From Lentisphaerota bacterium (lineage in GTDB: Bacteria > Verrucomicrobiota > Kiritimatiellia > CAIQIC01 > Lenti-01), in assembly GCA_012514035.1 (NCBI GenBank), contig JAAZBB010000043.1, positions 19,463 through 83,462 of the forward strand: 64,000 bases of DNA, read 5' to 3'. The notes under the pieces were generated by a model. The model worked only from the letters and a program-made list of their open reading frames with translations, did no database searches and was not told where the DNA came from. The position numbers were made by a program, and so were the translations under genes. Numbering within the stretch: position 1 is the stretch's first letter; each line of letters begins with the position of its first letter. Shown here in pieces: positions 11,541 through 50,359 of the stretch.

Positions 11541-14500
11541 TTATTTGCACTCGATCTTGATGAAGAGGCGGCCATCCCCATCCAGATCCGGCACCAGGAT
11601 GGTGTAGGTACCCGTTGCGGTGATGACCTGCTGCACGCCGGAGGGCACCCAGCCGGCGCCATCCGTCAAATCATTGTTCTCCAGGACATCCAGGATGGCC
11701 GGCGGGGTGGGCAGATTTGTCACGGTGAACGTGACCTCTATCTGGCCATCGACAGGCGTGGCGAGGATGATTTGACCATCAGCCGGACCGCCGCTGGACG
11801 GCAGGTCCGTTTCATCCCTCGGATCGGTGCCCTGATCCACCTCGACGCCATCGTTAAACCCATCGCCGTCGGTATCCCAGAGCCGGGGATCAGTCTGGTG
11901 GAGCGCCAATTCCTCCCCGTCATCCAAGCCGTCATAGTCGGAATCCGCCCGCATGGGGTGGGTGCCCAGGAACAGTTCCTGGGCGTTTGACAGCCAGTCG
12001 CCGTCCGGATCGCCGGTGGCGCCGTTGTCGCCGGTATCATCGAGCGGATCGAGGCCGTGGTCCACTTCCCACCCATCTTCAAGGCCGTCGCTATCGGTGT
12101 CTTTCTTCAGCGGATCTGTGCCCAGTAGGACTTCCTGTCCATCGTCCAACCCGTCGCCATCGGTATCGGCAACGACCGGATTGGTGCCTTGGGCCAGTTC
12201 CACATCATTGGGCAAGCCGTCGCCGTCCGGATCGCCAGTGGCGCCGTCGTTGCCGGCATCGCTGAGCGGATTCAGGCCATAGGTCACCTCCCAGCCATCC
12301 GGGAGGGTGTCGTGGTCGGTATCCGGGTTGAGGGGATCCGTCCCGTGGGTGTTCACTTCCGCGCCATCGTTCAGGCCGTCGCCATCGGTGTCTGACACCA
12401 AGGGCTTGGAGCCGAGATCGAGTTCCTGGGCGTTGGACAGTCCGTCGTTGTCCGGGTCGCCATTCGCACCGTTGTCGCCGGCCGCGCTCAGCGGATTGAG
12501 GCCCATGGTTACTTCCCATCCATCCGGCAAGCCGTCCCCGTCCGTATCGTCATTCCGCGGATCGGTGCCGCGGGCCAATTCCTGGGCGTTGGTCAGTCCA
12601 TCTGTATCCGGATCGCCGGTGGCGCCGTCCGCACCCGCGCCGCTCAGGGGATTCAGTCCATACTTCACCTCCCATCCGTCCGGCAGGCTGTCGCCATCGG
12701 TATCCGGATTATTGGGATTGGTGGTGGCCGCCATTTCCTGGCTGTCGGTCAAGCCGTCGTTGTCCGAGTCAGCCGCCAGGGGATTGGTGATGTACCCGTC
12801 GGCGCCCAGCGTGACTTCTTCCTCGTCGTCCAGCCCGTCGCCGTCCGTATCGGCCTTCAGCGGATTGGTGCCATGGGTGTTGACCTCTGCGCCATCCCAC
12901 AGCCCATCGCTGTCGGAATCCTTCGGATCGACGCCGGCGGGAATCCCCATGGCGCTGGGATATGTGCCATACTTGAACTCGTCGCCATCGGTCAAACCAT
13001 CGCCATCGGTGTCGGTGAACTGGTTCATGGCGAGGCCACCCGAGTAGTATTTCTCCCAGATATCGGCCAGGCCGTCGTTGTCTGTATCCGCATCATGGAT
13101 GACCAGGTCGTTGCCAGACACCGTGGTGGCGCTCTTGATCTCGATCTTCTTGTTTGAGTAATCCACGGCGTAGATACTGGTGGCCGGGACAATGCTGACG
13201 CCGCCCTTGCTGGCGGCACCGCTCTTGCTTTTCCGTCCGGGCACGCTGCGGATGGCCGCCTCGACCCAGACAAATCTTTGCACCGAAGCGGGCTGTCCCT
13301 TGACCAGGCCCCAGGCCTCGCCCGGATCCAACACGCCATCGTTGTCCTGATCCTGGAACGCCCGGACGTAGTAGTTGGCTTCCTGTCCGAAGCGCAGCCC
13401 CATGAGCCGGTAATTGTAATTGGCATCGGCCTTGACCCTGGCCACGGGCCGCTGGTCAAACCCGCTGCCCTCATAGGCTTCCACCACGATGTTGGGACTT
13501 GGGGAGAACCCGTAATAGTAGGCGCGTCCGGTAATCATGCCGGCGCCGCTGGCCGCCGGAGACTGCAGATTGACCGTGAAACTGGTCCAGACACTGGACT
13601 TTGACACGCGCGGATTGATGGCGGTCACTTGGATCCGGTAAGCCCCATTGGTAAAATGATTCCAACCTGCCAGGAAGGGCAGATCCATTTCGGCGCGGCC
13701 GTTCCGGTCAATGTAAGGGGCAAACACTGTTGTATCCAGCAACGTCTCGGTGCCACTGGCATTCTGAACTTGAATCCGGATTTGGGCGGTATTGGGATCC
13801 AAGGTCATCTGCAAGTGTTCCTGCGCAAAGAGGACACTGCCGACGGGGCTGATGATGGTCGGATTGACGAGGTTCGTCGGATAGTTCACGGAATTGGTGA
13901 CGACCGCAATCTCGTTGTTGTTTTGGTCGAACACCTTGCACACATAGGTCCCGGACATCGGCCCGGCCGATATGTCCGCCCAAGGGCCGGACTTGTTGTT
14001 GCGGAAGTCATATTCATGCAAGTAGTTCCGGCTGGCAGCACATCCGCCCCGGGTGGTCTCGTACACTACCTGGCCGTTTCTCAGCACGGTGACCGTGTAG
14101 CCCGACCCGCCCGTGGTGGCATTGGTATCGCCGCCCGTGGTGGCCCAGTCAAAGCGTGCGAATCCATTCGCTTTTTCGCGCAGGGCAATTTCGATCTTGG
14201 CCTCGCCCCACTGGATGTTTTCGGGCATGTACTCGCTGAAGCCCATCAGTTCCCCGGTGTTCCATTGGCCGTCGTTGTTGGCATCCACGAAGGCCATGAA
14301 ATAGTTCCGGCCCTGGCGCAGGTGCCCGCCGTTCGTCCAGTCGGTAATGTTCAGGGAATTGCCATCACGGATGGGTTCTTCGAGTTCGAGCGACGTCATC
14401 GCGTCCGGGCAGTTCATCGCCGGGTCGGTATAGGCCCAGATGCGCAGGGTGCCGTCCACTTCCGGGCAGTCCGTCTTGAACTGGAAGGTGATGCTCGGCT

Positions 14501-17500
14501 TGGGATAGGAAACGGGGTCGTCGGGATCGCAGTACGGGACGGAAAACCCGGTGCTGCTGATCAGGTTGGAGGAGACTTCCCCCTCGGTGTTGGTGGTCAC
14601 CTCGTAGACATTGGCGCTATGGGTCTTGTAGTAGGCCATGTATTCCGAATAGTTGTCCCATCCGTCCCCGTCCGGATCGAGGTTGGCATCGAACCGCAGC
14701 GGGCTGCACGCGTTGGGGAAGAGCGATTCCCAGCCGTCGGGCATGTTGTCGCCATCCATGTAGAGCGACCCGTAGGAAGCGCCGGTCGCGGGACTGTCGT
14801 AGTCGCCGGTTCCATCGCCATCGGTGTCGAATTCGAACGGATTGGTGCCCGCCAGGAATTCGGCTCGGTTGTTCAGGCCATCGTCATCCGGGTCGCCCCA
14901 GGCGCCGTTGACGAAATCGGTCTGATTAAAGATGTAATCCATCCGGCCGTCGCCATCCACGTCCACGGTTGACGTAGCGGCATCACCGAAGCCACCGTCA
15001 TTTTCATTGAGGCCATAGCGGATTTCCCACGCATCGGGCAGGCCGTCGCCGTCCGTGTCCTTGCCGCCGGACGGAGTGCCATCGCTCCCGGTTCCGCTGC
15101 CTCCACCGGTCGGGGCTGCTGTTTGATAGAACTCGACCACGCCGGACATCTTGGCCGCATGCGCCCACTGGTTTTCCCAGTCGCGGAGCACGGCATAGTC
15201 CTCCGTGCTGGGGATGAACCCCCACCGCCGCCAGACATGGTCCTCGTACTTGAAGGCCACCCCTTCGCTTTGAATGGTAACGTACAGGGCCGCGGCGTCG
15301 GCCGCGCTCGTCACCGGCACCAGAGCCATTCCGTCCCACTCCACGATGGATTCAGTAGAATTCATGTAGAACCGGTGGCCGGGCAGCAACGGATCAGCCG
15401 GGAGAACTTGGACCGCGCCGGTGGCATCCTCCCCATTGTAGATGTACACCATGTTGCTCGGGGCACAGACAAACATGTCGCCCAGCGTCGGAGGATACCA
15501 GGCATTCCCGGGGTCCGTGATCCCGGCAATGGTGTTGACCTGGCCGGCAATGGTCGCGCGGGCATCCGCCAGCCAGTGGCGTCCTTTGCCCCAGCGCAGC
15601 CAGTCGGTGCCGTCATACCGATAGAGGATTCGTTCCGCGTGGTTCCAGCCGAAGTCGCCCGGATTCGCGCTGCCTGTGCCGGGCACGATGCCGGTGCCGT
15701 CAAAAACCGGCCCGACGCCCGTCAGTTCCCCCACCACGCCGGAATCATTGACATAGACCGTGGTCCCGTCCACCCATGTGTCGCCATCCACCATGTCGCT
15801 GGCCAGCGGCGGGGACGTGTACCGGACGGAATACAGCAGATTGGTGATCCGGGTCGAATCCCACGTGTTGCTGCTGAGGGTCGGCCAGCCGCCGTCGTCA
15901 AAGTTGAAGTAGGCAGCCAAGCCCTCCTCCTGCCCTTCCAGCAACTGAGACATGGTCGCGGAAATGCTGGCGCCATCGCGCACATCGGACCACAGCCGCA
16001 GCTCATCCACGAAGCCATGGAAACGCTCGCCGATGCGGATGATGCTGGACGGGCCCTCGCCCATGGCCGGAGCGCTAATGTTGAGATCCTGGCGGGACGC
16101 AACCGCTTGGCCATTGACAAACAGAGTCAAGCGCTTGCCGGAACCGTCATAGGTGGCCGCCAGATGCGTCACCAACGCCGCATCGTAGGTGGCGGAAACC
16201 GCCAGCGGAACGCTGCCGGTCACGGCGATCGGAACCCCAATGCGGCCACTGGCCGTCTTGTACACAAAGCGTGCCTGGGGATAGAGATTGTTCCCGCTCC
16301 GGATCACGCGGAGTTCGTAATTGGCAATCAGCATGCCGTTGGTGACTTCTTCCACCGCCCGGCGGAAGATCGGCGCCCCCTGCCCGTCGGCCAGAAAGTC
16401 CACGCGGGCGGGCAGCACTGCCGCTTCCAGCGTCCACGAATTTCGGACAAAGGCCTCGCGGTCGAGCACCTCTAGCCAACTGCCTGGACGGCCCGTGAAA
16501 TAGGCGGTCAGGTACTGTTTGGGCGAGGTGGAATCCGACGCAACGAAGCCCTGGAAGACCTCGTCGTTATCGGACATGCCGTCGTCGTCGGTATCCGCCA
16601 GATCCGGACGCGTGGCATTGCGCGCCTCCTGGCGGTTGGAGAGTCCGTCGCCGTCGAAATCCTCGTCGCCGTCCGGAATCCCGTTTTCATCCGTGTCCGG
16701 TTTGCGTGGATTAGTCCGTGCCCAGTATTCCTGCAGGGTGGTCAGGCCATCGCCGTCCGGATCGCTGTCCGCATCGGAAAGCATTCGGCCCGTGACTCCC
16801 ACTTGGGCCACCGCCACCCCACCCTTGGACACCCACCACGTTTCCCCATCATCGATGAAACCGCTCACCTGGCCGGACCGGATCTCCCAGTTGGTGACGG
16901 TATTCAACACTGTGTTGGTGGTTTCCCCCTCAACCGTCGTGTTGGTCTCGACCGAATAATCGCCAATCAGCACCGTATTCGGGCATACCGACGTGGTGAT
17001 CACGCCGTTGACGACCGTGATGATGCCGGGACAGGTTGCGCTGGCCCAGGTCTGCCCGCCGTCGGCCGACGAGTTGAAGGTGAATCCACTGCGCTTGATC
17101 AAAATTTCCGGCACCCCCATCTTCGCCCAGCCCGGGTCGTATTCCAGCATGGAGTGTTCCTGGGTCAGCCAGGCAAAGGGGTTCAACTCGTGGACGATTT
17201 CCCAGCTATCCGGCAGGCCATCACCGTCGGAATCCAGCTCGCCGCGCTGGTTGTCCAAGGCACCATTGACCGGCGCTGTGCGGCCCGCATCAAACACGAA
17301 GCCGCCGCCGAGGGCCAGCGAAGGCAGTGCATAGGCCCGGTCCGGATACAGATGATCATGGAACAGGCGGTTGGGCACGTTTTCCGCCCCCGGGAAATCG
17401 TAGCCCAGCAAGCTGGACATCGCGCGGTGCCGGCTGTCCACGGCCACGTTGCCGCCGTCGTCAAAGTTGTAGTAGGCCAGAAGGGCGCCGTTCAGTTGCT

Positions 17501-20500
17501 GCCCGTCCAAAGTGACCATTTGGCGACCCTCGAGGAGAATGCTGCGGTTTGCCGCCACTTCCGCCTGGGATCGCTCAATGCCCCAGATGCGCAGTTCGTC
17601 AATCCAGAGGCGATTGGCAAAACCGCTTCCTTTTGCAAACTCCAGCTGCCCGCCGTTGCCGAATGTTGAAACCAGATAGCCGCCGGTGGTTTCCTCCACC
17701 ACCTGGCGGGATTGCACGAGCGTGCCGTCCACATACAGCGAAAGCGCATTCTTCCTGTGATCGAAGGTCGCCGCCAGATGGACCCAGCGGTTCCGCGGCA
17801 GGGGACGCGTGGCGCTGGCCTGGTACCACTTCCCGCCCAGCGAATGCAGACCGGCATAGGGAACCGTCTCCACGGTCTGGCCGCCGATGACCACATTGGT
17901 CACGCCCAGATCATAGGCCCGGCGCTCATTGCCGCCGATCATCAGATAGCCTTTGGTAAACGATCCGCTGGCGGGGGCATCCCCCTCCAAATACACCCAT
18001 GCTTCGACCGTGAAGTCCCGGGAGAAATAGCGGGGGTCGTCCACCAAAAGCGTTTTCGAACCTTCATCCGTCAGAATCTTGGCCGAACGGGCCACCAGCG
18101 GATTGAGCGACTGCACAGGGCTGGTCGGCTGCTTGCCGCGCGCCACGTCCATCTGGATTTCCGTCGAGTCCGGCAGGCCGTCGGCATCCGTATCCGTGCC
18201 CGGCATCGGCACCATCAGCGGCAGGTTGTCCGTGACGGGCTTGCCGCCGGTCACGAGATCGGTTCCAGCCGTTTCCGCATCCGTCAGGATGCTGTCGGGA
18301 TCCGAGAGGATCACGTCATTGGTGGGAATCAGCAGCGTGCTCAACGCCAGCGGGGTGTATACGTTGGCTTCATTTCGCGCATACCACAGAGCGTCAATGC
18401 CCGGCGTATAACGGCCGTCTTCCGCCCCGGCCGCTTCCAAGTAGTACAATCCGCTGAATGAGGTGGTAAAAGGCTGGAAGCCGCCGGTCCCCATGCTGTT
18501 GGTGAATCCATCGCCGTAGAAGGGAGCCAGGCTGGCCATGTCATTCGCGTAATACGGGAACGAAGGCACGCCGACCGTCGGCACCAGTTTGGGTTCGGGG
18601 TAAGGCACAAACACCACATTGGTCACGACTTCCTCGGGCGGGCCCGGGTTGGTGACCACCATCAAGCCTTGCATCCAGTTTGTGACGGTGGTTTCGTAGG
18701 CGGCCGGATGGAAGAATCCCGGATAATCCCGCATGGAATAGGACGCCGCCAAGCCGGGCGCCATGATTTCGTAGTACATGGGCGCCTGCCAGTCGTGGCG
18801 CAGCAGGATCCAGTTGGCCAGCACATAGGTCTCGAACGAGGATTGGTTTGGATAGTTCATGGCCCGGGCGGTCCAGGGAATGGTTTCATCCCCGGTTCCC
18901 GTGATAAAGTCGATGCGATATCCGTCCTGGCCAAAGTATTCCTGGATATTCAGGAGCCCGTCCCCGTCCGGATCGCCCAAGGCGCCGCTGGGATTAATCT
19001 CTACGGGCAGGTCGACAATGCCCAGCAGCGTTCCGCTGTCATCTTCATCTTCATCCTCGGCCAGATCGAACGCGGCCATGCCGGTCTTGGGGTTGAGGCC
19101 ATGCTCGACTTCCCAACCATCGATCAGCCCGTCCTTATCGGTATCCCATCCGTCGTACCGCACCACGAGGTTCGGCCGGGGCTCCGTCCAATAGCTGGCG
19201 GCCGACGGCCAAGCAATCCGGCCCGGAAGGCTCTGCAAGTCGGGACTGCCGGGCGATGACGCCACCTTGACACTGCCGGTCCAGTCGGCTTTGGTGTAGT
19301 CCACCGTGAAATAGCGGACGGAATCGCCCCACTGGCTGTATTTCGCCTGCTGGAGATATCCGGGCGTGCCATGCAGGCACCCCCCGCGGCTGGGCTGCCG
19401 GAAGCGCAATCCGGCACTCGTGACTTCCTTCTGCTCCAAGACGCACTTGGACGACATGAAAGGCCATATCGCCAGCGGATTCCCCCACCCGTATGTGAGC
19501 AAGGGATGGAGGCATTGCTCCCGGAAATTCGTCAGCCCGTCCTTATCCGGATCGGAATTATAGTGGAAGAGATCACCAACGGGCTCGGCTTCCACCGGCT
19601 TGAATCCATTCTTTGCGAAAAACTTTTCGAAGGAGTCCAGCAACCAGTCGTTATCGGTATCGCAATCGAAGGGGCTGGTCCATGGCTTGTCATTCAATTT
19701 CTCCGTCGGGAAATGATCGCGGGTCTCTCCCAGGGGCGGGCATCCTTCGGCGAAGTTGATGTCTTTGTTGGCTTTCTTCAATTCCTGCAGGGCCGTCATG
19801 CCGTCACCGTCAATGTCCATCCCGGGGTGCTGGAGGGTCTTGACGTCGCCCAGATCAGGGAGAAATGGGTCTTGCATCTTGTCGCCTTCAATGACTCCCT
19901 TGCGATTGGCGTAATCCGTGGTGTAGGTGAAGACATCCGTATTATAGATGAACCCGTTATCCTTGGGATCCAGCCCGGCATAGATTTCAACCGGGTCCTT
20001 CAGCCCGTCGCCGTCGGTGTCTTCCGCCCAGGGGTTGGTCCCGGCATAGGTAATCATCTTTGTGGATTCGTACAGGTCGGAGATGCCGTCGCAATCCGTA
20101 TCGAACAACTCGGGATCGGGGCCGTAGCCGAAGAATGCCGGATCGGCTTCATCGGTGACCACGTTTTGATTGTACGTGAACCAGCCCTCCTTGCCGTTGA
20201 TCTTGACTTTCCAGCCATTGAATTCCTGGATATTGGTCAGTCCGTCGCTGTCCTTGTCATCGGTGGGCTGGTAGCCGCTTTCCCAGACGAGATTGGTTTT
20301 CTGGGTCACTTGGTCGATTTCGACCTTGACCCAGTCATTGGCGGCGGCAAAATCCACGTAGCTCGGGAACAAGCCGGTCACCACCGCTTGCGCCTGCTGA
20401 AGTCCCCCGCTGCATAGCAGAAGGAGTGCTCCTCCCCACAAAATGGTTTTCACGGGATTATGCTTGATGGTGTGTGCTGTTCGCATGGCAACCTCTTTTT

Positions 20501-20510
20501 GCTGAACCAA
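11541..20510 (-). CDS. giant secreted protein (2989 aa) with thrombospondin type-3-like Ca-binding repeats and two LamG/ConA-like lectin domains
   Basis: Signal-like N-terminus (ILWGGALLLLCSGGLQQAQA). Dozens of DxDxDGxxDxxE motifs. Two LamG-like blocks (FTVEAWVYLEG..WVHLAATFD..LSLYVDGTLV..LWIDELRIWG and WTLEAAVLP..THLAATYDG..LTLFVNGQAV..FVDELRLWS). Alternative start at ATG 20486. Confidence 0.85.
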   Translation of the reverse strand: MVQQKEVAMRTAHTIKHNPVKTILWGGALLLLCSGGLQQAQAVVTGLFPSYVDFAAANDWVKVEIDQVTQKTNLVWESGYQPTDDKDSDGLTNIQEFNGWKVKINGKEGWFTYNQNVVTDEADPAFFGYGPDPELFDTDCDGISDLYESTKMITYAGTNPWAEDTDGDGLKDPVEIYAGLDPKDNGFIYNTDVFTYTTDYANRKGVIEGDKMQDPFLPDLGDVKTLQHPGMDIDGDGMTALQELKKANKDINFAEGCPPLGETRDHFPTEKLNDKPWTSPFDCDTDNDWLLDSFEKFFAKNGFKPVEAEPVGDLFHYNSDPDKDGLTNFREQCLHPLLTYGWGNPLAIWPFMSSKCVLEQKEVTSAGLRFRQPSRGGCLHGTPGYLQQAKYSQWGDSVRYFTVDYTKADWTGSVKVASSPGSPDLQSLPGRIAWPSAASYWTEPRPNLVVRYDGWDTDKDGLIDGWEVEHGLNPKTGMAAFDLAEDEDEDDSGTLLGIVDLPVEINPSGALGDPDGDGLLNIQEYFGQDGYRIDFITGTGDETIPWTARAMNYPNQSSFETYVLANWILLRHDWQAPMYYEIMAPGLAASYSMRDYPGFFHPAAYETTVTNWMQGLMVVTNPGPPEEVVTNVVFVPYPEPKLVPTVGVPSFPYYANDMASLAPFYGDGFTNSMGTGGFQPFTTSFSGLYYLEAAGAEDGRYTPGIDALWYARNEANVYTPLALSTLLIPTNDVILSDPDSILTDAETAGTDLVTGGKPVTDNLPLMVPMPGTDTDADGLPDSTEIQMDVARGKQPTSPVQSLNPLVARSAKILTDEGSKTLLVDDPRYFSRDFTVEAWVYLEGDAPASGSFTKGYLMIGGNERRAYDLGVTNVVIGGQTVETVPYAGLHSLGGKWYQASATRPLPRNRWVHLAATFDHRKNALSLYVDGTLVQSRQVVEETTGGYLVSTFGNGGQLEFAKGSGFANRLWIDELRIWGIERSQAEVAANRSILLEGRQMVTLDGQQLNGALLAYYNFDDGGNVAVDSRHRAMSSLLGYDFPGAENVPNRLFHDHLYPDRAYALPSLALGGGFVFDAGRTAPVNGALDNQRGELDSDGDGLPDSWEIVHELNPFAWLTQEHSMLEYDPGWAKMGVPEILIKRSGFTFNSSADGGQTWASATCPGIITVVNGVITTSVCPNTVLIGDYSVETNTTVEGETTNTVLNTVTNWEIRSGQVSGFIDDGETWWVSKGGVAVAQVGVTGRMLSDADSDPDGDGLTTLQEYWARTNPRKPDTDENGIPDGDEDFDGDGLSNRQEARNATRPDLADTDDDGMSDNDEVFQGFVASDSTSPKQYLTAYFTGRPGSWLEVLDREAFVRNSWTLEAAVLPARVDFLADGQGAPIFRRAVEEVTNGMLIANYELRVIRSGNNLYPQARFVYKTASGRIGVPIAVTGSVPLAVSATYDAALVTHLAATYDGSGKRLTLFVNGQAVASRQDLNISAPAMGEGPSSIIRIGERFHGFVDELRLWSDVRDGASISATMSQLLEGQEEGLAAYFNFDDGGWPTLSSNTWDSTRITNLLYSVRYTSPPLASDMVDGDTWVDGTTVYVNDSGVVGELTGVGPVFDGTGIVPGTGSANPGDFGWNHAERILYRYDGTDWLRWGKGRHWLADARATIAGQVNTIAGITDPGNAWYPPTLGDMFVCAPSNMVYIYNGEDATGAVQVLPADPLLPGHRFYMNSTESIVEWDGMALVPVTSAADAAALYVTIQSEGVAFKYEDHVWRRWGFIPSTEDYAVLRDWENQWAHAAKMSGVVEFYQTAAPTGGGSGTGSDGTPSGGKDTDGDGLPDAWEIRYGLNENDGGFGDAATSTVDVDGDGRMDYIFNQTDFVNGAWGDPDDDGLNNRAEFLAGTNPFEFDTDGDGTGDYDSPATGASYGSLYMDGDNMPDGWESLFPNACSPLRFDANLDPDGDGWDNYSEYMAYYKTHSANVYEVTTNTEGEVSSNLISSTGFSVPYCDPDDPVSYPKPSITFQFKTDCPEVDGTLRIWAYTDPAMNCPDAMTSLELEEPIRDGNSLNITDWTNGGHLRQGRNYFMAFVDANNDGQWNTGELMGFSEYMPENIQWGEAKIEIALREKANGFARFDWATTGGDTNATTGGSGYTVTVLRNGQVVYETTRGGCAASRNYLHEYDFRNNKSGPWADISAGPMSGTYVCKVFDQNNNEIAVVTNSVNYPTNLVNPTIISPVGSVLFAQEHLQMTLDPNTAQIRIQVQNASGTETLLDTTVFAPYIDRNGRAEMDLPFLAGWNHFTNGAYRIQVTAINPRVSKSSVWTSFTVNLQSPAASGAGMITGRAYYYGFSPSPNIVVEAYEGSGFDQRPVARVKADANYNYRLMGLRFGQEANYYVRAFQDQDNDGVLDPGEAWGLVKGQPASVQRFVWVEAAIRSVPGRKSKSGAASKGGVSIVPATSIYAVDYSNKKIEIKSATTVSGNDLVIHDADTDNDGLADIWEKYYSGGLAMNQFTDTDGDGLTDGDEFKYGTYPSAMGIPAGVDPKDSDSDGLWDGAEVNTHGTNPLKADTDGDGLDDEEEVTLGADGYITNPLAADSDNDGLTDSQEMAATTNPNNPDTDGDSLPDGWEVKYGLNPLSGAGADGATGDPDTDGLTNAQELARGTDPRNDDTDGDGLPDGWEVTMGLNPLSAAGDNGANGDPDNDGLSNAQELDLGSKPLVSDTDGDGLNDGAEVNTHGTDPLNPDTDHDTLPDGWEVTYGLNPLSDAGNDGATGDPDGDGLPNDVELAQGTNPVVADTDGDGLDDGQEVLLGTDPLKKDTDSDGLEDGWEVDHGLDPLDDTGDNGATGDPDGDWLSNAQELFLGTHPMRADSDYDGLDDGEELALHQTDPRLWDTDGDGFNDGVEVDQGTDPRDETDLPSSGGPADGQIILATPVDGQIEVTFTVTNLPTPPAILDVLENNDLTDGAGWVPSGVQQVITATGTYTILVPDLDGDGRLFIKIECK

Positions 20511-48006: not shown

Positions 48007-49095
48007 TCAGGTGCTGGCGCGAATTTCGATCACATCGCCGTCCTGGACAATGTACCCCTTGCCCTCCAGGCGCAGTTTGCCCGCCTCGCGGCAGGCCGCA
48101 TGGGTTTTCTTCTCGATCAGCGTCGGAGCATCAACCGTTTCGGCGCGAATGAATCCCCGCGCCAGATCGGTGTGGATCTTGCCGGCCGCCGTCTCCGCGT
48201 TGTCGCCGCGCCGAAGCGTCCAGGCACGCACCTCGTCTTCCCCCACCGTGAAGAAACTGATGAGATTCAGGGTCTGATACGCCGCCTGGATCAGCCGCGT
48301 CCGCGCCGGCTCCCTCAGCCCGTAGTCTTGCAGGAAACCGGCCTGGTCACCCGGGGCCAGGGCGGCGATTTCCGCCTCCAGCGGGGCGCAGAAGGCTAGC
48401 AGATCGAGCCCCTTCTCCTGGCACGCCGTGCGCAATGCCGCGCACTGTTCTCCGGTTGGATCCGCATCGCCGGTGTTGGCAATCACCAGCACCCGCTTCT
48501 GCGACAGAAAACTAAAACTGCTAACCAGTTTCTGCTCCTCGGCTGGCAGTTCCAGGTCGCGCAAGGCCCGTCCGGAATCGATCGCCGCCTTGCATTTCTG
48601 CAGCACCGCCAGCTCCGGCAGCCCCTGCTTCAGCCCGCGCTTGACGTCCTGCTCGATTTTTTCGACGCGGCGCTCGACCTTCTCCAGATCCGCCATCGCC
48701 AGGTCCAGCAGCACGGATTCCAACTGCGCCACGGAATCCAACGGCTTGCCCGCGCCATCCGTTTCCCCAAACGATTGCACTACCAGCGCAAAGGCGTCCG
48801 CCTCGCCCAGAAATGCATTCAGCGGCCCGAATCCGCTGCCCTCCGCATGCGCGGGCAGCGCCACATCCACAAACGTGACTTCCGCCGGAATGTATTTCTT
48901 GGGCTGGAAGATATCGCGCAGCGCGGCCAGCCGCGGATCGGGCACCTTGACCGTACCGAGCCGGTGCCCGCCCCTGGTCGCGAAATGCGGTCCTTCGGGC
49001 GTCTGAATCAGCGCATCGAAAACCGCTGTCTTGCCCGCCGCCCGGGCCCCGATCAGATATAAAAGCAAAGCTGCCATGGGCCCGTAGTAAAACAT
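48007..49095 (-). CDS. ychF: YchF/OLA1-family ribosome-binding ATPase
   Basis: P-loop IGARAAGKTAVFDAL. C-terminal TGS-like ISFFTVGEDEVRAWT..GKIHTDLARGFIRAE..GKGYIVQDGDVIEIR. Alternative start at 49077. Confidence 0.8.
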   Translation of the reverse strand: MFYYGPMAALLLYLIGARAAGKTAVFDALIQTPEGPHFATRGGHRLGTVKVPDPRLAALRDIFQPKKYIPAEVTFVDVALPAHAEGSGFGPLNAFLGEADAFALVVQSFGETDGAGKPLDSVAQLESVLLDLAMADLEKVERRVEKIEQDVKRGLKQGLPELAVLQKCKAAIDSGRALRDLELPAEEQKLVSSFSFLSQKRVLVIANTGDADPTGEQCAALRTACQEKGLDLLAFCAPLEAEIAALAPGDQAGFLQDYGLREPARTRLIQAAYQTLNLISFFTVGEDEVRAWTLRRGDNAETAAGKIHTDLARGFIRAETVDAPTLIEKKTHAACREAGKLRLEGKGYIVQDGDVIEIRAST

Positions 49096-49290
49096 ATCGA
49101 CACATCCGATGCAATCGCTTCACGACGGCAGTCAGTTTCGACACCCCGATGGATTTCGATGGCGCCCCATTTTTCATCATGTCGTAACACAACCCTGCCG
49201 CCTCGCAAACCCGTATGTTACAAGGCGACAGCCCATCATCCCGAATACGGCGCGGGGCGGTTCCTCTTTTCCGGTACTTGATTTGATCGG

Positions 49291-49973
49291 ATGGGGACAT
49301 GGGGGCTTGGACCCCGTGCCCCTTCTTCACCACCGGACATGCGGTTTCCCGCATTCGGCGGTTGAACTGGGCGCTACCTTCTCTGGCTGCAGCAAAGCAA
49401 AGGCAAGGTACACGTATCTCGCTCCTGCCTGTGCTTCATCGAACAAGTCTCCCGACTTTCCCTTGAATCATAGAAAGTGCCCGCAAACGACATCCATAAT
49501 GCATCCACATTCCACCGCCGTTCGCCCTTTGGCTCGGCTGGATCAGCCTTTGCCTCCTTTTCGGATCTTGTCACTCTCTTTCTCCGGGGAACTTCGGTCT
49601 GTTTTCTCCAGTTCTTCGGCCCTTCGCTCCGGCCGCCTTTCGGCGGCTCTCTTCGCTACTACGGCCTCTGATGACTCCTCCTCCCGACTCTCGCCCCGGA
49701 GGCTTCCCCAGGTAAGGTGCGTGAACTTTCGGCCCGCGCCGCCAGACTCTTCCCGATCCGGCTTTCGGCGACGGTTGGATTTCGCGTTCTCTCGCACGCT
49801 CATCGCCCGGATTGAGCCTCGCTGCCTGTTCGTGTTTCTGCGGTCGTGCCTTGGCTACGGACTTCTTTCAGCTCGGACCCTTGCGGGGACGGCCTTGTCT
49901 TTCGCTTCGGTTGTCGTCGCTATCTCCGGCCATCTCCTTTCAGGTGACAAGTTCACGCCCATGCTGGGCACAC
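49291..49973 (-). mobile_element. ORF-less group II intron-like ribozyme (class unassigned; domain V triad CGC)
   Basis: Minus strand starts GTGTGCCCAGCATGGGCGTGAAC (GUGYG 5' end). Contains CAACCGAAGCGAAAGACAAGG and many other GAAA-capped hairpins. Domain V-like CCGCCGAAUGCGG-GAAA-CCGCAUGUCCGGUGG at 49331-49364. Domain VI-like GGGGCACGGGG-UCCAAG-CCCCCAUGUCCCC with an unpaired A. Ends ..CCCCAU. No reverse-transcriptase ORF. Confidence 0.7.
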
Positions 49974-50084
49974 GAGTGCGGCGGCATGACGCCGCTTTGG
50001 AGCCGCGACATGCTTGCCCGCCGCAGCCTTGGACAAAGGCGGGGGGCGGCCCGGGAAAGCGCAGTCATGCCCACACTCCAAAAT
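49974..50084 (-). repeat. TTGGAGTGYG...CGCACTC inverted-repeat element (copy interrupted by the intron)
   Basis: Minus strand: TTTTGGAGTGTGGGC (50084-50070) ... GCCGCCGCACTC (49985-49974). Same architecture at 21321..21441 and 55279..55352. A half copy lies at 51202..51221. Confidence 0.6.
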
Positions 50085-50359
50085 GGCCGACCCTCTTGCC
50101 CCCCCTGTTGTGCCTTCGCGTCCATGCCGTTGGCTTGGCATGCTTGGTGCGAGAACCCATCCCGGTCTCGACGGGGCCGCCCTGGCTTTTCGATCCCGCC
50201 TCCCCCTTTCGTGCATTTCGCGCATTTCGTAGTTTGTCCCCCTGTTTCCTGCTTTCTTGACTTGCCGTTGCATCCAGTCCTACCCTAATCACCGTGACGA
50301 TCCGAGAAGGACATCATTCGGACGGTCATGACCGGATTCCTTCACCCCTGAAAAGGAAA

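Follow-up and report, generated by a model that had tools for sequence, protein, structure and literature searches.

A class IIC group II intron without an intron-encoded protein upstream of ychF in a Kiritimatiellia-type bacterium, probably a decaying relic

Does the non-coding gap upstream of ychF on contig JAAZBB010000043.1 (Lentisphaerota bacterium, GCA_012514035.1) hold a group II intron, and if so, is that intron a working element or the remains of one? The gap is 1.2 kb long and separates ychF (minus strand) from a divergent methyltransferase gene (plus strand, from ∼50294); it lies within a stretch of 64,000 nt, the whole of which was analyzed and is called the window below. An earlier note made from the letters of this DNA had proposed that part of the gap is a class IIC group II intron lacking an open reading frame (ORF), and that it is either a copy dependent on a protein supplied in trans or a fossil. 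Judged from its sequence and from covariance-model comparisons, the element (49973..49286, minus strand, 688 nt) is a genuine class IIC group II intron without an intron-encoded protein (IEP). As to the choice between dependence and fossilization, the pattern of substitutions favors the fossil, and we regard the window copy as probably an immobile and decaying relic.

Two Rfam models matched the whole window above their gathering scores, and both matches fall inside the intron: RF02001 (Group-II-D1D4-3) at 49890..49717 with 76.3 bits (gathering score 32, E = 1.8e-13), and RF01998 (Group-II-D1D4-1) at 49716..49619 with 36.0 bits (gathering score 35). These matches establish a real group II intron, as had been claimed, and eliminate a chance resemblance. 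The earlier note had suggested searching with the D1–D4 models together with RF00029, the model for domains V and VI, and here the result was mixed, because RF00029 aligned to 49363..49286 with only 32.1 bits (E = 5e-4 in a permissive local scan of 1.7 kb), below its gathering score of 40, whereas 18 of the 20 related loci scanned reached 40.6–44.9 bits. The shortfall of the window copy is explained by four broken base pairs described below. For annotation the lesson is that RF00029 alone, applied at its gathering score, would miss the element. The Rfam scan found no second intron in the window, and a tblastn search with the IEP of the related introns gave a best E of 0.55, so that no reverse transcriptase (RT) is encoded in the 64 kb, in agreement with the earlier reading of an ORF-less element.

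The landmarks on which that reading had been built (a GUGYG 5′ end, a motif about 60 nt further in, GAAA-capped hairpins, a domain V and a domain VI hairpin) are all present on the minus strand. The intron begins with GTGTGCCCAGCATGGGCGTGAACTTGTC, its first base at 49973, and the opening GUGUG fits the GUGYG boundary rule; CAACCGAAGCGAAAGACAAGG follows ∼60 nt inside; the 3′ terminus, ...GAU at 49286, fits the AY rule; and the intron strand is 62% purine, with 13 occurrences of GAAA. The likeness to the class IIA intron Ll.LtrB that had been pointed out reflects merely the generic group II 5′ consensus. Assignment to class IIC, on the other hand, held up. In the RF00029 alignment, C-G-C in the window copy occupies the positions of the consensus A-G-C triad, and a CGC triad is typical of class IIC introns such as that of Oceanobacillus iheyensis. 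The other grounds are a small domain I with exon-binding site 1 (EBS1) only, a target made up of a hairpin and a short intron-binding site 1 (IBS1), and an IEP without endonuclease in the relatives. Class IIC is marked by EBS1 only, a single-base intron-binding site 3 (IBS3), a hairpin target and an endonuclease-less IEP (PMC4424553, PMC8643678).

Metagenome assemblies were scanned with the first 20 nt of the intron, with exon position −6 required to differ from the window locus, and at least 120 related loci were recovered, most of them 1.8–1.9-kb introns behind a hairpin and a T-rich tract. Three of these (L017, L099, and L114) share 90% identity with nt 1–363 and 607–688 of the window copy; between the two blocks they have 1,459 nt, against 243 nt in the window copy. 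The full-length relatives measure 1,901–1,903 nt, are ∼90% identical to the window copy over domains I–III and V–VI, and encode in domain IV a 424-aa IEP that has RVT_1 and GIIM domains but lacks an endonuclease domain. The best solved homologue of the L114-type IEP is the GsI-IIC RT (402 bits, full length), whereas other IIC RTs scored 266–330 bits, the IIA protein LtrA 127 and a IIB RT 94. Its 90%-identity cluster includes NCBI entries named Kiritimatiellia bacterium, which is the class of the host, and an identical IEP appears in the index of 211 collection blocks, the 10 places shown comprising several distinct contexts as well as tandem copies. The IEPs of two further loci, L234 and L235, are 90 and 93% identical to that of L114, and both introns were used as full-length outgroups. 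By these comparisons, the window copy is a descendant of a multi-copy, ∼1.9-kb intron family of Kiritimatiellia-type bacteria. No match was found to the domain V pattern CCGCCGNATGNNNGAAANNNCATGTNCGGTGG in 185,579 species-representative genomes, to the intron by blastn in the PLSDB plasmids, or to its 5′ 20-mer in viral contigs.

Other arrangements were also seen among the related loci. Scaffold_4294 of ENA ERZ28615445 carries identical 1,903-nt introns in tandem (L225 and L227), their IEP genes 1,968 nt apart and the spacer of ∼65 nt containing the target hairpin GGGCAGGACAGAGCCTGCCC followed by CTC. Four loci (L015, L050, L088, and L097) contain an intron of ∼1,205 nt in which an internal deletion has left a 5′-truncated ORF encoding just the C-terminal half of the IEP, beginning at ...SFVRYADD...; one 5′ exon is common to all four. 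On the minus strand of L131, a domain V-like sequence lies ∼57–104 nt past a family 5′ end and may belong to a second intron, nested or adjacent, or to a copy with extensive deletions.

Domain IV is where the window copy departs from this family. A filler of 243 nt (49610..49368) without counterpart in the relatives stands in place of their ∼1,460 nt with the IEP gene; similarity to the relatives covers the first four bases of the domain IV stem, breaks off, and restarts at the complement of that stem. In tblastn with the IEP (all frames) and in blastn at word size 7, the filler resembled neither the domain IV of the relatives nor their IEP, and it had no match in the retrieved loci or elsewhere in the window. 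Because it resembles nothing in the relatives' domain IV, a simple internal deletion is excluded and a replacement is indicated: on this comparison, the relatives' domain IV is swapped in the window copy for an unrelated non-coding segment. The new domain IV folds as a closed domain (z = −4.0 vs. shuffled sequences), and the only sizeable ORF of the filler (66 aa) has two nonsynonymous differences between strains. No other locus with the 243-nt domain IV was present among the at least 120 related loci listed. A candidate 25-mer specific to the filler is GGAATGTGGATGCATTATGGATGTC.

The ends of the intron were set by comparing independent insertions. The window copy, L017/L114, L099, L222–L225, L234, and L235 occupy different insertion sites, and the sequence common to all of these runs from GUGUGCCC... 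to ...CCCCAUCCGAU, after which comes C. The 3′ end is placed at 49286 because the similarity of the relatives at independent sites ends there, as does the RF00029 match. The end at 49291 that had been proposed earlier was therefore wrong by 5 nt, and the terminal AU of that proposal includes the likely branch-point A. Nor was the unpaired A at 49300, put forward at the same time, the branch point; it is a copy-specific G-to-A change that makes a C × A mismatch, and the homologous branch-point A is at 49292, at a distance of 6 nt from the corrected 3′ end. On the exon side, the 5′ exon terminus at 49974 reads ...GCCGCACUC and the 3′ exon from 49285 reads CAAAUCAAG. At every site of the closest family the 5′ exon ends in ...CUC, upstream of which the exons have only a hairpin in common, ending 3 nt before the junction at most of the relatives' sites. 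The hairpin in the window has no U-tract and is therefore no classical terminator. The C that follows the intron in the window and at every independent site of the close family is what a fixed EBS3 would lead one to expect.

EBS1 was located empirically, as a terminal loop whose positions 2–6, across 16 diverse members of the family, are complementary to the final three to five bases of the exon. This loop reads C-GAGAG-AA both in the window copy and in its close relatives, and its GAG is complementary to the CUC of the 5′ exon end, the EBS1/IBS1 pairing that had been proposed for checking. An initial candidate, the internal loop GUAGAUCC (GUAAA in the Rfam consensus), was rejected, being near-invariant while exon ends vary; EBS1 is the terminal loop of the hairpin that comes next. 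Domain I, at ∼262 nt, contains no further exon-complementary arm. Four loci (L114, L076, L223, and L225) share one target hairpin, GGGCAGGAC(A/G)GAGCCTGCCC followed by CTC, though their 3′ exons differ, and this hairpin may be a dispersed repeat that serves the intron family as a landing pad. The coordinates of all features are given in Table 1.

Table 1. Features of the intron, its exon junctions and the downstream gene ychF (window positions).
Feature	Position	Strand	Basis
Complete ORF-less class IIC intron, 5′ GUGUG...CCGAU 3′	49286..49973	−	Rfam and the relatives' independent sites
Domain I, ∼262 nt, closed by CCCAG/CUGGG and GGGCGUGAAC/GUUCACGCAC, no EBS2 arm	49707..49968	−	RF02001, fold, consensus structure
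EBS1 terminal loop CGAGAGAA; GAG at 49793..49791	49787..49794	−	Covariation in 16 family members
Domain I 3′ closing strand, domain II, junction J2/3, domain III	49619..49716	−	RF01998, 36.0 bits
Domain IV, 7-bp basal stem GAACUGG/CCAGUUC around non-coding filler	49364..49614	−	Comparison, fold
Domain V, 34 nt, GAAA loop, 2-nt bulge, CGC triad at 49360..49358	49329..49362	−	RF00029 alignment
Domain VI, eroded; homologous branch-point A at 49292	49290..49325	−	Folds of window copy and L114, pair counts
5′ exon stem-loop, IIC-type target hairpin	49980..50018	−	Fold −22.6 kcal/mol, z = −2.6; ends 6 nt before the junction
IBS1 CUC, last three 5′ exon bases	49974..49976	−	Complementary to EBS1 GAG
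First 3′ exon base C, presumed IBS3	49285	−	Same C at every independent site of relatives
ychF, outside the intron, same orientation	48007..49095	−	Pfam YchF-GTPase_C

Whether the window copy still evolves as a ribozyme was judged from its base pairs. It scored lower than the nearest full-length relative with each Rfam model (76.3 vs. 99.4 bits for RF02001, 36.0 vs. 41.8 for RF01998, and 32.1 vs. 41.3 for RF00029). On the RF02001 structure, 9 of 48 pairs are non-standard in the window copy and 6 in L114, with three broken in the window copy alone and none in L114 alone. Domains V–VI are 93–99% identical among three full-length lineages (L114, L234, and L235), whereas the window copy is 85–89% identical to them. 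When changes unique to one lineage were counted at paired positions, the window copy had 8 broken and 2 kept pairs against 4 broken and 21 kept in the three full-length lineages (Fisher's exact p = 7e-4), a contrast that is biased against the window copy in domains I–III, the structure of which was taken from full-length sequences; counts made on the Rfam structure or in domains V/VI are free of that bias.

Four of the pairs broken in the window copy belong to domains V and VI, where the full-length lineages have lost none. A G-C pair of the lower helix of domain V, present in all full-length relatives, has become A × C, with the G lost at 49355; the domain VI basal helix has lost two of its four pairs, through changes of UG at 49323–49322; and a C-G pair of the domain VI upper helix has become C × A, at A49300. 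Domains V and VI together fold at −41.0 kcal/mol in the window copy vs. −51.5 in L114. In L114, a bulged A stands 6 nt from the 3′ end, over a 4-bp basal helix, a geometry reported to favor branching in IIC introns (PMC4748821). When 70 members of the family were aligned for a MAFFT/RNAalifold consensus, they fell into two poorly aligned groups, and this consensus was dropped for judging the window copy; the RNAalifold pairing of the end of domain IV with junction J5/6 in the 3′ block was treated as a mispairing and replaced by the canonical domain V/VI pairing. Two contigs of the window locus differ slightly from the window: L005 and L009 carry a 1-nt deletion at 49866, where domain I is unpaired, in CCG(U)AGCC, and two filler substitutions (49481/49476), and L009 also has one change in each flank; none of these differences falls in domains V/VI.

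Around the intron, the distance from its end to ychF is 190 nt if translation starts at the ATG at 49095 and 208 nt if it starts at the ATG at 49077. The second ATG is probably the true start, because close homologues are 356 aa long and begin with MAAL, whereas the listed ORF begins with MFYYGPMAAL. The host YchF is 83–88% identical to homologues that include proteins of Kiritimatiellia metagenome-assembled genomes (MAGs), and among named genomes the nearest are MAGs of the PVC group. Many metagenome assemblies contain the window locus itself, at 99.7–100% identity, and such same-species contigs therefore offer no comparative signal. Samples in which the species is plentiful include ERZ764825 and JGI 3300009642. 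In relatives with 84–88% YchF identity no alignable empty site was found; upstream of ychF these have ftsA-ftsZ-OMP and then a tRNA-like sequence, or G-rich repeats, or the contig end. The tRNA-like sequence lies ∼30 nt upstream of ychF and by eye resembles tRNA-Ser(CGA); tRNA-like or repeat stretches occur at ∼2860–2970 of L217 and L220, ∼1–90 of L219 and L135, 1–230 of L215 and 1–330 of L221, and two relatives have a G-rich repeat array, ..GCGCAAGGGGGGAAGCG.., with only the tail of the tRNA-like sequence. The window has no tRNA in its 64 kb and has similar G-rich motifs at ∼50000–50230. Since many of the relatives' contigs end exactly upstream of ychF, the spot looks rearrangement-prone and repeat-rich.

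Antisense to the whole intron runs a 383-aa ORF (49109..50260, plus strand), annotated as a gene in all public contigs of the locus. Pfam assigns it no domain, a search of 5.8 billion proteins returned homologues from this locus alone, and it looks like a spurious gene call, of a kind that arises because the antisense strand of a purine-rich RNA is stop-poor; public annotation thus places a spurious 383-aa protein opposite the intron. Neither a sigma-70-like promoter nor a terminator was found on the intron strand between 48900 and 50500, with the proviso that the consensus may not suit this phylum. In one shared sample, the contig with a full-length intron had 8.2x coverage and the host contig 25x, a ∼3-fold gap which argues against these two contigs being one genome. 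The NCBI record that contains the window locus resembles a bulk metagenome assembly. Elsewhere in the window, a 2,989-aa ORF extends over 11541–20510 on the minus strand.

The history that best accounts for these observations would begin with a family RNA that recognizes a DNA stem-loop, the 3-nt IBS1 CUC (by EBS1 GAG) and a C as first 3′ exon base. The intron would have arrived by the usual IIC route, as suggested by its target-site features, which the data show. Domain IV with the protein gene would later have been exchanged for the unrelated 243-nt non-coding segment, and the ribozyme would afterwards have evolved without the structural constraint seen in the full-length copies, its own substitutions breaking pairs in domains I, V, and especially VI and weakening the helix that positions the branch-point A. 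If the intron is transcribed, slow removal by hydrolysis or by a trans-supplied maturase might persist; since no gene is interrupted, nothing depends on this removal. As far as seen the copy is single, none of the at least 120 related loci listed sharing its domain IV and a search with the antisense ORF returning the same locus only, and we infer that it is immobile and harmless in its non-coding gap.

Several observations pull the other way. The GUGUG 5′ end, the AU 3′ end, EBS1/IBS1 and the presumed IBS3 base are all intact; one domain I change specific to the window copy is fully compensated; the sole domain V mismatch, A × C, could be a protonated wobble; and the domain V loop is GAAA, a proper GNRA loop, where the full-length relatives have AAAA. 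The perfect 7-bp stem and good fold of domain IV are unlike a random deletion scar. Damage to domain VI need not abolish splicing, because hydrolytic splicing in vitro, which makes no use of domain VI, is seen in many IIC introns (PMC4748821). To these must be added the bias in the domain I–III counts and the scope of the copy number, which was assessed over the at least 120 metagenome loci and the 64-kb window, so that other ORF-less copies, or a resident full-length copy, may exist.

Points of this kind lend some color to a working, non-autonomous mini-intron, spliced or mobilizable by the RT/maturase of a full-length relative in the same genome. Genomes with ORF-less bacterial introns nearly always contain related introns as well, the IEP of which may act in trans (PMC4424553, PMC8643678), and ORF-less IIB introns in Thermosynechococcus do act as trans-served mini-introns (PMC2882425). 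A possible partner is at hand in the 90%-identical full-length family, abundant in the same bacterial class and the same kinds of sample, and the window copy retains six domains, both splice sites, its exon-pairing elements and a tidy, closed domain IV. We nevertheless consider such a mini-intron unlikely. Its copy-specific substitutions preferentially break helices, four of them in domains that the full-length lineages keep 93–99% identical; the entire domain IV, with any IEP-binding site there, has been replaced; no second copy with this domain IV turned up, either among the at least 120 related loci listed or through the antisense ORF; and neither the lack of an RT within 64 kb nor the unequal coverage in the sole shared sample speaks for a resident helper. 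A more ambitious form of the idea, in which the filler is an adaptation of a functional IIC mini-intron served in trans by the Kiritimatiellia full-length family, possibly with a role in the ychF leader, is more doubtful again; if true, it would be the first example of trans-dependent IIC introns.

That the element has been domesticated in the service of ychF, as a structured 5′ leader or an outward-facing promoter, strikes us as very improbable. It does share the orientation of ychF, lies 190–208 nt upstream and is 99.7–100% identical in every same-species contig examined, but that identity reflects one nearly clonal species rather than conservation across species, and relatives at 84–88% YchF identity have tRNA-like sequence or G-rich repeats there and no intron. 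IIC-attC introns with outward promoters have been described (reference 69 in PMC4424553, as cited there), but the intron strand yielded no sigma-70-like promoter in the interval and with the proviso given above, and the erosion of the catalytic domains gives no sign of selection on the ribozyme. Hardly credible at all is the reading of the region as an ordinary structured intergenic sequence with a chance resemblance to an intron, or of the 383-aa ORF as its real feature: the Rfam E of 1.8e-13 and the 90% identity to bona fide 1.9-kb IEP-bearing introns contradict the one, and an ORF without Pfam domain or homologue beyond its locus, explained by the stop-poor antisense of a purine-rich RNA, makes little of the other, even though gene callers annotate it in every public contig.

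A decaying relic, then, remains the reading that we favor. Its interest lies in the fact that the ribozyme has been kept, the protein gene fully swapped, and the parent family and outgroups are known, so that the shift to structure-breaking substitutions becomes directly measurable, in a small natural example of retroelement decay after protein loss. Loss of the ORF followed by slow erosion is an uncommon but already known fate of bacterial group II introns; nothing suggests a new mechanism, and no new question is opened.

Compared with well-studied class IIC introns (O.i.I1 of O. iheyensis, B.h.I1, and GsI-IIC), the window copy has the same small domain I with EBS1 and no EBS2 arm, a presumed single-base IBS3, the CGC triad and the insertion just after a DNA stem-loop, and the IEP of its relatives likewise consists of RT and X domains without endonuclease, with the GsI-IIC RT as best match. 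It differs in having no IEP and an unrelated 243-nt filler as domain IV, and is therefore a IIC ribozyme rather than a IIC retroelement. It also differs in a target hairpin that has no U-tract behind it and does not serve a same-strand gene as terminator, in an IBS1 that is CUC and not U-rich, and in a host of Kiritimatiellia type. With the full-length family (L017/L099/L114, L222–L232, L234, and L235) it shares ∼90% identity, the EBS1 loop, the 3′ end and the target rule of hairpin, ...CUC, intron, and C, but those introns carry the 424-aa IEP, are multi-copy and change in ways that preserve structure, whereas the window copy is ORF-less, apparently single-copy and changed in ways that break helices.

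Like other ORF-less bacterial introns (survey of Simon et al., 2008, as summarized in PMC4424553), it is an IEP-less ribozyme related to IEP-bearing introns of the same lineage. The ORF-less introns of Thermosynechococcus elongatus, however, are of class IIB, numerous, and spliced and mobilized in trans (PMC2882425), and C.te.I1 of Clostridium tetani is an efficient self-splicer within a gene; the window copy, by comparison with both, is of class IIC, solitary, intergenic and visibly eroding. The ∼1.2-kb introns of L015, L050, L088, and L097, from the same wider family, are also of class IIC with a reduced domain IV and have the same 20-nt 5′ end, but they keep the C-terminal half of the IEP, whereas nothing of the ORF is left in the window copy.

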